UHGV virus genome: UHGV-0127965
Length of the DNA: 37,909 nt
Origin: a virus
Reading direction: 5' to 3' (one strand)
Positions 5,920 through 16,322 of the stretch are shown here, in pieces; the stretch's first letter is position 1; each line of letters starts with the position of its first letter. The notes beneath the pieces were generated by a model. That model was not told the DNA's origin. It searched no databases and saw only the letters and a list, made by a program, of their open reading frames with translations. The position numbers and the translations under genes were made by a program.

Positions 5920-6888
5920 TTAGTAGGTTATTTTTGTTGCGAATACTTCGCCTTTTACGATGGCTATTATGATATTTTTAGCAACATCTTCTGATGCGCC
6001 AACCTTGATAAGGTCAGCAAGTATTTTGTTATTTACTTCTTTCCGGTGAGCTTTATCCTTTGCTCTACACTCTTCTTCTTCCTTGATTCTTTTTTCTTCT
6101 GCTATTCTGGCTTGCTCTTTTGCTTCAGCCTCGCGCCGGATTCGTTCAGCCTCCTCCTGTGCTTTTCGGCGTTCTGCTTCAATTGCCGCCTGCTTTTCTC
6201 TTTCAGCTCGTTCTGCTGCCTCTTTTGCTTCGCGCTGTGCTCGTTGCTCGGCTTCAATGCGTTCACGCTCTGCACGTTCCGCTGCGGCCTTAGCTTCTGC
6301 TTCTCGCCTTGCTGCTGCTTCAATTTCGGCTTTTGCCTTTGCTTCGGCTTCAGCTCTGGCTTTCTCTTCAGCTTCTCTTTTTAAGCGTTCTTCATGCTCT
6401 CGCTTTTCCTGCTCAGCTTTGAGTCTTGCCTCTTCTCTTTGGCGGTCAAATTCGCGATCCATCAAAATCGCTATTTCATGGTCAGACTCAATTTGCTTTG
6501 CGAGAGCTTCAGCTGCTGCCTTAGCTTCTTCTTCGGCTTTAATCCGCGCCTGTTCTTCCTCATAATCAGTAAGAGGCTGGCGCGCCTTGGCTTTCAGTTC
6601 ATCAAGGCGATCACGCACTGTCTTGCGGTTGGCATCAATTAGCTTTGGAATTTCCTTAAGTTCAGCAACAAGGTCTTTGCCAAGACCATCGAGATATGTT
6701 TTCGTCTGCGCAACTTTATACGCCAGAGAAGCGATCTCCTTTCTGCCCTTTGCCGTTGTGATATCAGGCACAAAGGACATAACTTCACGTTCAACCTTTT
6801 GAAGGATTTCTTCAATCTGGTCGGCAGACTGAAATACAGTCATTGCATTTGCTTTTTCAATAACAACTAAATCTGTTACTTCACTCAT
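5920..6888 (-). CDS. Coiled-coil protein with long E/A/K/R low-complexity repeat, 322 aa
   Basis: GGAGG RBS; structured N-terminal 100 aa then about 180 aa of AEAKA/EEKAR repeats; function unknown. Confidence 0.6.
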   Translation of the reverse strand: MSEVTDLVVIEKANAMTVFQSADQIEEILQKVEREVMSFVPDITTAKGRKEIASLAYKVAQTKTYLDGLGKDLVAELKEIPKLIDANRKTVRDRLDELKAKARQPLTDYEEEQARIKAEEEAKAAAEALAKQIESDHEIAILMDREFDRQREEARLKAEQEKREHEERLKREAEEKARAEAEAKAKAEIEAAARREAEAKAAAERAERERIEAEQRAQREAKEAAERAEREKQAAIEAERRKAQEEAERIRREAEAKEQARIAEEKRIKEEEECRAKDKAHRKEVNNKILADLIKVGASEDVAKNIIIAIVKGEVFATKITY

Positions 6889-7031: not shown

Positions 7032-7502
7032 CTAATAAAATACCCAATTTTCTGTTTCTTGGTTGTGTCCAAAGTTATATTCAATATCTGGTGTTGATGT
7101 ATCAATATTCTTCATCCCATCAACAAGAGTTGATACAACAGCCAAATCTTGTTTGATTCTCATTAAATGGTATTTCTTCCGGCGCAATAAACTTTCAATG
7201 GCAAGTTTCTTCGTTGGGAATGCAAAAGATCTTTCTGCATTTTTTGCTACTTTCTTAATTGCATATCTATTTCTCTTTTGTTTCCATTCCTGTAACCACT
7301 GATTTGGTGCTGGTTTAAAATTAACAATCCAATGCGCAGGAACCAACCATGCATAATGCTCTGTCTGATGAAAAGCTATATATTGAAGTGCGAATATTTT
7401 GATTCCATCTTCTTCAACTGTCGCCTGGAATCTCCAGAAAACAGGCATTCCATCATGTTCAGTTTCTGATTCAGGAAAAGGTACGCTCCATGATTTTGTC
7501 AT
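7032..7502 (-). CDS. Hypothetical AT-rich cargo protein, 156 aa
   Basis: GAGGTGAG RBS; markedly AT-rich compared with neighbours; sits where lambda ral/sieB lie; no family recognised. Confidence 0.55.
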   Translation of the reverse strand: MTKSWSVPFPESETEHDGMPVFWRFQATVEEDGIKIFALQYIAFHQTEHYAWLVPAHWIVNFKPAPNQWLQEWKQKRNRYAIKKVAKNAERSFAFPTKKLAIESLLRRKKYHLMRIKQDLAVVSTLVDGMKNIDTSTPDIEYNFGHNQETENWVFY

Positions 7503-7510
7503 ATCTCACC

Positions 7511-7837
7511 TCAAATAAGTGGCTTGCTGCCTAATTTCATTTTCTGGCGACCAACACAAGTCACACCCATTTCACTGCGTGGCTTGCTGTACCATGTGCG
7601 CTGATTCTTGCGCTCAATACGTTGCAGGTTGCTTTCAATCTGTTCGTGGTATTCAGCCAGCACCGTAAGGTCTATCGGATTCAGTGCGCTTTCTACTCGT
7701 GATTTCGGTTTGTGATTCAGCGAGAGAATAGGGCGGTTAACTGGTTTTGCGCTTACCCCAACCAACAGGGGATTTGCTGCTTTCCATTGAGCCTGTTTCT
7801 CTGCGCGACGTTCGCGGCGGCGTGTTTGTGCATCCAT
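7511..7837 (-). CDS. N: Antitermination protein N (lambda type)
   Basis: MDAQTRRRERRAEKQAQWKAANPLLVGVSAKPVNRPILSL... is essentially lambda N, including the arginine-rich boxB-binding motif. Confidence 0.95.
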   Translation of the reverse strand: MDAQTRRRERRAEKQAQWKAANPLLVGVSAKPVNRPILSLNHKPKSRVESALNPIDLTVLAEYHEQIESNLQRIERKNQRTWYSKPRSEMGVTCVGRQKMKLGSKPLI

Positions 7838-8105
7838 CTGGATTCTCCTGTCAGTTAGCTTTGGTGGTGTGGTGGCTGGTAGTCTAGCTCCAGCTTGTTG
7901 AGTCTCATTCGGAGGGGTATAACCGGCACCCCAGCGATTTTTCCATGCGACAACGTGCGCGTTATGGCGGCCTTATCGCCCGCGGCTCCCCATCTCGTCC
8001 ACGCTATTGCTAGCGTTGGGAGCGCTTCACCGCTCAACAGTAGGTAAGCACTTGCCAGTGACTAGCTGGCTTCACCACACCCCAAAGCCTTCTGCTTTGA
8101 ATGCT

Positions 8106-8136
8106 GCCCTTCTTCAGGGCTAAATTTTTAAGAGCC
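8106..8136 (-). promoter_or_regulatory. nutL (boxB plus boxA-like)
   Basis: Reverse complement gives GCCCTGAAGAAGGGC (lambda nutL boxB) and GGCTCTTAA, one mismatch from boxA CGCTCTTA; flanking sequence matches the lambda N leader. Confidence 0.85.
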
Positions 8137-8174
8137 TCACCTTCATGGTGGTTAGTGCGTCCTGCTGATGGCTT

Positions 8175-8250
8175 AAAATTACAAGAAAGATTGTATGTTG
8201 TAAACAAGAAAAATTGTAAAAAGAGGCGTGAAAAACAAACTCCGTTGTTT
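8175..8250 (-). promoter_or_regulatory. pL promoter with 434-type oL operators
   Basis: Three ACAA-N6-TTGT sites (8181-8194, 8204-8217, 8235-8248); minus-strand -35 TTTACA and -10 TAATTT overlap them. Confidence 0.6.
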
Positions 8251-8298
8251 TTAAACGGAAAATAGTTTGTTTTTTGGTTATCGAGATTGAGGTGGGGA

Positions 8299-9651
<1,353 letters not shown>

Positions 9652-16247: not shown

Positions 16248-16322
16248 GGGTCAGTCGTATAAAGGTCATTACGGAAGGCTGTTAACCTTCTTATCGTGGT
16301 TCGAGTCCACGCTGTCCCGCCA
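16248..16322 (+). tRNA. tRNA-Asn (anticodon GUU)-like gene
   Basis: Hand-folded cloverleaf: acceptor GGGTCAG/CTGTCCC (6 of 7 pairs), U8, D-loop with GG, anticodon stem GAAGG/CCTTC with loop CTGTTAA, T-arm CGTGG-TTCGAGT-CCACG, discriminator G, encoded CCA. Confidence 0.55.

Follow-up and report, generated by a model that had tools for sequence, protein, structure and literature searches.

A tRNA-shaped apical cassette proposed for the N-leader hairpin of a P22-like lambdoid phage

The N leader and its substituted segment

The window analysed here is the whole 37,909-nucleotide (nt) stretch of UHGV virus genome UHGV-0127965, which belongs to a lambdoid, P22-like phage. Our subject is the leader of its antitermination gene N, which is read from the minus strand and in which exactly 268 nt (7838–8105) separate boxB of nutL from the N ATG at 7837. 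A 434-type left operator and pL lie upstream of nutL, with a lambda-like transcript start at ~8169. The N product, of 108 amino acids (aa), shares ~90% identity with lambda N, and homologous phages have the gene annotated as N. We propose, with moderate confidence and largely by analogy with lambda, that the middle of this leader is a tRNA-shaped apical domain of the N-leader RNase III hairpin, which would serve N processing and autoregulation and possibly also be released as an RNA.

Alignment with lambda and Sf6 delimits the segment. Near-identity to lambda runs from pL through GGCUUUGGGGUGUG, down to 8076, and the last 34 nt before the ATG (7871–7838) are identical to lambda; between them, 204 nt (7872–8075) stand in place of lambda's 94 nt. 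The substituted segment has a GC content of 57.8%, against 47.4% for the whole window. In lambda, boxB and the ATG are 158 nt apart when measured from the end of boxB and 173 nt when measured from its start. An earlier note on this DNA, made from the letters alone, had the coordinates of the leader right (8105–7838, between boxB at 8106–8120 and the ATG at 7837), and was also right that lambda-like flanks enclose a longer, GC-rich middle; its lambda length of 'about 175' is close to the value counted from the boxB start.

The lambda-homologous flanks pair with each other, 8089–8073 with 7874–7857, in a basal helix, P1, of 17 base pairs (bp) and one bulged A, which is mostly shared with lambda and appears in the minimum free energy (MFE), centroid and consensus folds. 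Because the flanks match lambda, the hairpin occupies the same position as lambda's. The segment is therefore a substitution, in which a known hairpin has had its apex replaced, and has not been inserted into a leader without structure. The parts of the leader, from 5' to 3' in the RNA except that paired strands are kept together, are as follows.

8128–8136, minus strand: nutL boxA (GGCUCUUAA), from alignment with lambda nutL; the element is annotated in HK544 and Sf6.
8106–8120, minus strand: nutL boxB hairpin (GCCCUGAAGAAGGGC), identical to lambda; annotated in HK544.
8073–8089, minus strand: P1 5' strand (GGCUUUGGGGUGUGGUG), GU-rich and boxC-like; 17 pairs, one with a compensatory G-C to A-U change.
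7857–7874, minus strand: P1 3' strand (CACCACACC-A-CCAAAGCU; bulge at A7865), homologous to lambda's 3' hairpin strand.
7872–8075, minus strand: substituted cassette, 204 nt for lambda's 94 nt, from alignment; shared by five N/nut contexts.
8054–8070, minus strand: D-like hairpin GCCAG-CUAGUCA-CUGGC in the consensus fold, separated from P1 by AA (8071–8072).
8060–8064, minus strand: UAGUC of the D-like loop, invariant; proposed kissing partner of GACUA at 7880–7884.
8033–8038, minus strand: P3 5' strand GUUGAG in the consensus fold; a long-range helix at the place of the tRNA anticodon stem.
7897–7902, minus strand: P3 3' strand CUCAAC in the consensus fold.
8018–8023, minus strand: P4 5' strand GCUCCC, paired with GGGAGC in the consensus fold.
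7985–7990, minus strand: P4 3' strand GGGAGC in the consensus fold.
8001–8016, minus strand: GNRA hairpin ACGCUA-GCAA-UAGCGU; two pairs with compensatory double changes.
7947–7979, minus strand: imperfect helix region, consensus columns 112–144; the least certain part of the fold.
7914–7932, minus strand: hairpin GGGGUG-CCGGUUA-UACCCC in the consensus fold.
7875–7894, minus strand: T-like hairpin GCUGG-AGCUAGACUA-CCAGC in the consensus fold, flush with the P1 3' strand; its loop holds GACUA (7880–7884).
7845–7849, minus strand: N Shine-Dalgarno sequence AGGAG, identical to lambda.
7511–7837, minus strand: N antitermination protein gene, 108 aa, an open reading frame (ORF) with homology to lambda N.

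The order of these parts is that expected for the RNase III hairpin of an N leader: boxA (8136–8128), boxB (8120–8106), the hairpin (8089–7857), the Shine-Dalgarno sequence (7849–7845), 7 nt beyond the end of the P1 3' strand, and the ATG (7837). The strands of the basal helix, GU-rich on the 5' side and CA-rich on the 3' side, are likewise homologous to lambda's and form 17 bp with one bulge.

The whole leader is 99–100% identical in Sf6, HK633, HK446, HK544, Sf101, mEp043, mEp213 and two further coliphages, and is found in ~60 of 5426 complete E. coli genomes, always in prophages and with a median of one copy. An interspersed repeat (ERIC/IRU-like), suspected by eye, was ruled out by this copy number and restriction to prophages. 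The cassette carries no annotation in the records of leader-sharing phages such as Sf6 and HK544, and we found no literature that describes it or prints its sequence. Identity to a well-characterised leader would have disposed of the earlier note's case; the leader is indeed identical to those of Sf6 and the HK and mEp phages, but these have been sequenced, not characterised. In one decayed prophage (L003, E. coli P276M chromosome, 503215–503310), a deletion has brought part of a virion gene up against the cassette, of which the 3' 96 nt are left, directly ahead of N. Contigs with lambda N also occur in assemblies of unrelated bacteria (L005–L021 and others, among them Pseudoxanthomonas, Shewanella, Paenibacillus, Capnocytophaga and Desulfovibrio); the leader, where present, is lambda's, and these are most likely lambda DNA contamination of sequencing libraries.

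Fold of the leader and its support

The leader has an MFE of −105 kcal/mol, compared with −86.3 ± 4.6 kcal/mol for 200 dinucleotide shuffles (z = −4.1), none of which is as stable. A consensus fold was obtained with RNAalifold from an alignment of 20 distinct variants (A3; window position = 8091 minus alignment column). It runs P1, AA, the D-like hairpin, a 15-nt linker, P3, AA and the T-like hairpin; P3 in turn encloses P4, the GNRA hairpin, the imperfect helix and the GGGGUG-CCGGUUA-UACCCC hairpin. All four helices that had been picked out by eye in the earlier note recur in this consensus, namely CGCUA-GCAA-UAGCG, which shows compensatory changes, GCUCCC/GGGAGC, GGGGU/ACCCC and (U)GUUGAG/CUCAAC(A). 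That note did not have the cloverleaf or tRNA-like topology, the loop–loop complementarity or the many alternative cassettes described below.

Variation among the 20 sequences follows this fold. Cells are paired at 99.5% in the consensus, as opposed to 32–48% when partners are slid by 1–3 columns, and double-sided changes occur at three pairs where 0.3 are expected, a count reached by none of 500 shuffles and by none of the slid controls (0–1). These are CGCUA/UAGCG to CGUUA/UAACG and to CAUUA/UAAUG, in which the loop stays GNRA (GCAA or GUAA), and G-C to A-U in P1. The three diverged lineages show 44 differences, of which 30 are in unpaired columns (36% of all columns) and 14 in paired ones; a standard pair is preserved in 13 of these 14. 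Among the individual helices, one of the 6 pairs of P3 is broken in a single variant of the 20, two pairs of P4 become G-U wobbles in diverged lineages, and the D-like hairpin is invariant save for loop position C8065 (C/U); the region 7947–7979 shows wobble changes and two singleton disruptions. We conclude that the leader RNA is real, non-random and structurally constrained.

The interior is described here by the consensus fold because the variants contradict a helix, GGCGAU/AUCGCU, in the single-sequence MFE of this part. That helix is broken at the hypervariable position 7935 (A3 column 156; the G in AAUCGCUGGGG), which is G, A or U in independent lineages and has an adjacent 1-nt deletion in one, and it is probably not real. 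Further tertiary contacts are possible on sequence grounds: CCUAC (8040–8044) and CAUGG (7943–7947) resemble the two strands of the 11-nt GNRA-tetraloop receptor, which might receive the conserved GNRA loop at 8007–8010, and the loop CAUAAC (7961–7966) might contact the loop of the GGGGUG hairpin (7920–7923), to which it is complementary (UAAC:GUUA).

The opposite strand folds as well as the N-sense strand, with the same score, and because of this equality the strand assignment rests on G-U pairs derived from variants. Such pairs, several of which arise from G-C, would be C-A mismatches on the other strand. This bears on the possibility that the segment encodes a small protein, from a 60-codon ORF with a TTG start (7855–8037, minus strand), or that the opposite strand provides an antisense RNA or a promoter. 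The ORF is present, one phage record annotates a hypothetical protein here, and the plus strand's equal stability would suit a product from that strand. The ORF, however, has no Shine-Dalgarno sequence, no promoter-like sites were seen on either strand over 7500–8400, and only in the N-sense RNA do the G-U pairs, variant-derived ones among them, count as standard. Coding potential was itself rejected: the frame suffers a frameshift in one variant (L079), a stop codon in another (L125) and loss of the start in a third (L217), and substitutions are mostly non-synonymous. We give this reading almost no credence.

The leader was also compared with known RNA families. The Rfam check suggested by the earlier note came out negative, with no match for the leader even at E ≤ 10; over the leader and its surroundings at that threshold, the Rfam 15 curated families gave chance-level matches only (E > 1). 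Five sister leaders gave nothing at the gathering threshold, and the leader of cassette type 144, described below, gave at E ≤ 10 only an 11-bit T-arm match to the model of transfer-messenger RNA (tmRNA). For tmRNA itself, ARAGORN -m called none even at an 80% threshold and Rfam returned nothing over 7830–8110. Bacterial Y RNAs such as YrlA have a tRNA-like module with conserved D and T loops and lie next to the Ro60 (rsr) gene (PMC4201824). Here there is no Rfam match to that family, and the context is an N leader and not the neighbourhood of rsr.

Exchange of apices between N leaders and the link to tRNA

BLAST searches of phage and plasmid collections returned only copies at least 99% identical, with no diverged homologues. 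Scans of IMG/VR and metagenomes with exact anchors supplied the diverged copies, and a survey of the same slot also took in N loci and GTDB genomes. At least 15 other apices were found, held by a basal helix that is either the same or covaries. Counted from CUUUGG to CCAAAG, apices are 68, 71/72, 77, 111, 118–120 (lambda), 124, 133, 143/144, 147, 153, 159, 161 and 228/229 nt long, the last being the phage's own; two further apices, and a tRNA, come from Hafnia phages. The cassette types are unrelated by BLAST, except for 71 with 72 and for 147 with 153 and 159. In other types P1 is kept by different sequences, as in GGGAUUGGAUG/CAUCCAAUC and GAGUAGCGCG/CGCGUUACUC.

Conversely, the phage's cassette together with its P1 is found, 93–100% identical, in at least five N/nut contexts:

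Context 1: lambda N.
Context 2: a diverged lambda-like N with boxB GCGCUGAAAAAGCGC (L125).
Context 3: a P22-type boxB with N start MTRRTQFKGNSRSRRRE (L257, L258 and others of 16 loci, cassette and flanks identical; mEp506-like).
Context 4: N start MTVVITYLADDNARNRRRA (L137, L229).
Context 5: N start MNAKQRCKLRRLE (L243, L248; Hafnia-type).

Directly outside GGCUUUGG.../...CCAAAGCU, flanks cannot be aligned between contexts. Judged from these sequences, the cassette travels as a unit between N/nut systems. One Hafnia phage N family with near-identical flanks carries four apices, a true tRNA (L370, phage Pocitis76), the phage's cassette (L243 and L248) and two cassettes with GCUGA:UCAG(C/U) complementarity (L375, Meifeng, and L376, yong1), and exchange must therefore be recent and frequent.

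Such diversity might mean that P1 alone matters and that the interior is a leftover of recombination, kept for its non-interference. The apices range from ~40 to more than 200 nt and are unrelated in sequence, lambda functions with a quite different apex, and most helices of the phage's type are invariant and so untested by covariation. A neutral stuffer would nevertheless not be expected to show compensatory double changes in one internal hairpin, changes confined to wobbles in other helices of the interior, substitutions skewed to unpaired columns, or a stability far beyond that of shuffled sequences. Nor does it account for a cassette that stays 93–100% identical in contexts with unalignable flanks, or for complementarity between D and T loops that recurs with different interiors. 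We consider this explanation improbable.

The layout of the cassette, which is predicted and in part backed by covariation, is that of a tRNA. In the consensus fold a four-way junction is formed by a 7-bp acceptor, continuous with the 5-bp T stem stacked on it, a D-like hairpin that follows the acceptor after two nt, and an 'anticodon' helix. A direct connection with tRNA comes from Pocitis76, whose N family and flanks are as in L243 and L248. Its slot reads GGCUUUGGGG, then UGUGGUG UA GCUC AGUUGGUA GAGC G GAGGC CGCCCGA GCUUC GCGUC GCUGG UUCAAGC CCAGC CACCACA C, then CACCAAAGCU. The gene is annotated tRNA-Gly, is called by ARAGORN at default, and scores 47.2 bits against Rfam RF00005 (gathering threshold 29; E = 2e-9). 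The same tRNA arrangement, with wobble and loop changes, occurs in a second prophage with another early gene or N context (L372), and phage yong2 (L374, 701–775) has a tRNA without the extended stem ~140 nt downstream of an early promoter.

The acceptor of the Pocitis76 tRNA, UGUGGUG/CACCACA, is the top 7 bp of the phage's P1, and its T stem, GCUGG/CCAGC, is identical to the T-like stem. The tRNA-Gly(CCC)-like gene thus shares with the phage's cassette the slot, the extended stem, the acceptor and T stems, the abutment of the T stem on the acceptor, and a hairpin two nt after the acceptor. Unlike it, the cassette has AA for U8-A9, a 5-bp D-like stem, a 10-nt T-like loop lacking UUCRA, a 15-nt linker, a domain of ~140 nt in place of the anticodon arm, one nt for the variable loop, and an elbow of Watson–Crick loop pairs. 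Cassette type 143/144 is intermediate between the two, with the same T stem, a canonical T loop UUCGA(C/U)U, a D arm GCUC-AACGGC-GAGC and an enlarged central region; four of its pairs show double-sided changes, a count matched by 17 of 500 shuffles. Relaxed ARAGORN runs made sense-strand tRNA-like calls in types 143/144, 147 and 159 and none in the phage's type, but since 1–4% of interior shuffles are called likewise, such calls are weak support for a tRNA. The phage's cassette is best read as a highly derived tRNA-shaped element that is allelic to a tRNA but, by sequence, is not one.

In the leader tRNAs (L370, 704–777; L372; L374) the anticodon loop is NGCCCGN, with G at the usual U33, and no CCA is encoded. 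U is almost always found at tRNA position 33, and the leader tRNA may itself be a tRNA-like element and not a decoding tRNA. A large insertion that replaces the anticodon arm of a tRNA-like domain is the architecture of tmRNA. The cassette resembles it in that pairing of its ends makes an acceptor-like stem, the 3' side carries a T-type arm and a large structured domain takes the place of the anticodon arm; unlike tmRNA, it is embedded in a messenger RNA (mRNA) leader and has neither a tag reading frame nor a free CCA end.

An interaction between the outer loops, as at the elbow of a tRNA, is suggested by their complementarity. UAGUC of the D-like loop (8064–8060) could form 5 Watson–Crick pairs with GACUA of the T-like loop (7884–7880). 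Both motifs are invariant in 20 of 20 variants, while nearby loop bases vary (8065 C/U, 7889 A/G, 7887 C/A, 7886 U/A), and a 5-nt Watson–Crick run arises in 2.2% of loop shuffles (p ~0.02 for the phage's cassette). A separate group of cassettes (147, 153, 159, yong1 and Meifeng) has GCUGA in the first loop and UCAGC, or its wobble variant UCAGU, in the last, and this pairing persists although the group has five different interiors and the stems and loops of the last hairpin are of several kinds (p = 0.004–0.006).

The junction and its possible tertiary contacts also invite comparison with a riboswitch-like aptamer that senses a ligand or temperature and gates N translation or P1 formation. The fold is a large multi-helix junction with a GNRA loop, and lambda N autoregulation is said to be temperature sensitive (Wilson et al. 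2002). Set against this, no riboswitch in Rfam matches at E ≤ 10, no alternative-pairing switch element is evident, and the occurrence of unrelated folds, even a tRNA, in the same slot argues against a single conserved ligand. This reading seems to us very improbable.

Proposed role in N expression and its implications

In lambda, RNase III cleavage relieves N autorepression, and the N-leader hairpin concerned was reportedly described by Kameyama et al. 1991 and Wilson et al. 1997, 2002. According to PMC5725501, which cites Wilson et al. 1997 and 2002, lambda N acts from nutL, ~200 nt upstream, to repress its own translation over a spacer that is highly structured, and the RNase III-sensitive hairpin lies between nutL and the N ribosome-binding site. 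The phage's hairpin shares with lambda's its position, largely identical basal strands, nutL and the ribosome-binding site, and presumably its role in processing and N autoregulation. It differs in an unrelated apex that is 110 nt longer and forms a four-way junction in place of lambda's irregular hairpin, and in that the cassette is also found with non-lambda N/nut systems.

By analogy, we propose that as the pL transcript emerges P1 closes, which would place the nutL-bound complex of N, Nus factors and RNA polymerase beside the N Shine-Dalgarno sequence, where N could repress its own translation. An endonucleolytic cut in P1 would then separate nutL from the N mRNA and relieve the repression. 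RNase III is the candidate enzyme: P1 (17 bp) and the coaxial T-like stem (5 bp) would provide ~22 stacked bp, a suitable length for an RNase III substrate. The compact tRNA-shaped apex would nucleate and stabilise P1. RNase P, a molecular ruler (PMC4919913) that measures 12 bp from the elbow, may also cut, in this case between 8080 and 8079, although the extended helix may hinder it or require RNase III to act first. After a cut by either enzyme, a structured RNA of ~210–220 nt would be released.

A small RNA is known from P22, where the 96-nt P22B derives from the gene 24 leader and ends 16 nt before the AUG (PMC13397905). Its source is the hairpin of equivalent position, which lies between nutL and the N homologue, and its sequence takes in the ...ACCAAAGCC 3' strand; P22B shows that such a leader can give rise to a discrete RNA that accumulates. 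Its interior is unrelated in sequence, however, and its reported ends are not those of a simple two-strand cut in P1. In the P22 sequence (L368, 300–460) the hairpin strands are GGUUUGGACUGGCG/CGCCAGUACCAAAGCC, with a GUGUGGUGGAGCU motif inside, as at the top of P1, and P22B starts just past this motif.

Two further systems provide parallels. In ribosomal RNA (rrn) operons, where the boxes are ordered boxB-boxA-boxC, boxC lies within the leader–trailer helix cut by RNase III, and in the model discussed in PMC10250234 the antitermination complex would keep hold of the 5' strand of this helix until the 3' strand emerges. Both there and here, a GU-rich box downstream of the antitermination site provides the 5' strand of a long helix around a structured RNA. 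The rrn helix differs in that it encloses 16S rRNA and not ~200 nt, whereas in the phage boxC is only resembled (GGGGUGUGGUG compared with UCUGUGUGGG) and the helix positions a ribosome-binding site. In mitochondrial tRNA punctuation and in mascRNA, tRNA-like structures serve as processing signals. The mechanism proposed here would be similar, with a tRNA-shaped fold in a longer transcript directing an endonuclease that splits upstream from downstream RNA, but because the acceptor helix is extended, the main or first cut may fall to RNase III.

Several observations weigh against the interpretation that we favour. The type varies little (mean column identity 99%), so that most helices are invariant and uninformative, and the proposed kissing pairs never vary; as a universal feature, moreover, loop–loop complementarity had to be rejected, being absent from types 144, 111, 77 and 71. 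The RNase III site in P1 is assumed from lambda. RNase P usually prefers a single-stranded 5' leader, and here the acceptor-like helix runs on for another 10 bp. As a tRNA, the cassette has no Rfam match at E ≤ 10 over 7830–8110 or 7400–8500, and ARAGORN calls none at default and only a wrong-strand one at the relaxed 80% threshold. Its loops, AGCUAGACUA and CUAGUCA, do not contain the UUCRANY of a T loop or the GG of a D loop. Finally, the T stem may be shared in part because the 3' flank is shared and pairing constrains the stem, and not through descent from a tRNA.

The cassette may instead act mainly in trans. RNase III and/or RNase P would release from the first transcript a stable tRNA mimic that might, for example, decoy or inhibit host defences directed at tRNAs or titrate a factor that binds tRNA, and the slot would be a hypervariable locus for accessory RNAs. 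The slot does hold many unrelated cassettes, each highly conserved, whose alleles move independently of N specificity, and a single N lineage of Hafnia phages has four different apices. Among the alleles are true tRNAs and others that are plainly tRNA-like, the cassette lies on the earliest transcript after infection or induction, and P22B accumulates as a small RNA from an equivalent leader. On the other side, the cassette RNA has no known target and its release is itself putative; tRNA identity elements are missing from the cassette, as is a CCA end in the correct register, no linked gene accompanies it, and discrete allele types are normal lambdoid mosaicism for which no arms race is needed. 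We regard a mainly trans-acting RNA as unlikely, though deserving some weight. A bolder version, which strikes us as quite unlikely, is that the nutL–N spacer is a hypervariable locus for tRNA-derived RNAs, ranging from working tRNAs to mimics as heavily remodelled as the 204-nt cassette, which RNase III and RNase P would excise from the first transcript to act in trans on the host's tRNA-recognising machinery or tRNA-directed defences, the excision at the same time setting the level of N.

A cassette that serves primarily as the apex of the N-leader hairpin remains the reading that we prefer, and it agrees in part with the three roles put forward in the earlier note. The suggestion of an alternative RNase III site pointed in the right direction, except that no new site has been inserted; the apex of the known lambda hairpin has been replaced. 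A cis-regulator of N translation was likewise right in direction, with an anatomy unlike the one described. For an embedded small RNA there is support from the exchange of a constrained module, from the tRNA in the relatives' slot and from the 96-nt RNA of P22, although here too the anatomy differs.

Some other features of the window may be recorded. A tRNA-Asn gene (anticodon GTT) lies elsewhere, at 16248–16322 (plus strand). Between a cI-like repressor gene (8700–9332, minus strand) and pL there is an ORF with a signal-peptide-like start (8299–8775, minus strand), followed by a terminator-like hairpin at 8240–8260 (minus strand); it occupies the slot of Sf6 gene 38 and may be an accessory gene expressed in the lysogen. 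A 322-aa protein encoded at 5920–6888 (minus strand) has a long low-complexity stretch rich in E, A, K and R.

The N leader is among the most studied regulatory RNAs of molecular biology, but in its lambda form only. The element described here is a new form of its RNase III hairpin, and as far as the literature searched shows it is undescribed that the apex can be swapped, that in this phage it is a large tRNA-shaped derivative and that in relatives it is a true tRNA. Cutting and regulation of the leader, or the production of a small RNA from it, may thus follow a course not previously described. The cassette is an RNA motif outside Rfam with some covariation support, and has homologues in the tractable model phages Sf6, HK544, mEp043 and mEp213. 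If our interpretation is correct, the RNase III hairpin would be a general docking slot in which lambdoid phages swap structured, tRNA-shaped RNAs independently of N specificity. This raises the questions of whether RNase P takes part in N regulation, whether the apex tunes the input of RNase III to the choice between lysis and lysogeny, and whether temperate phages make early tRNA-mimic RNAs with targets of their own.

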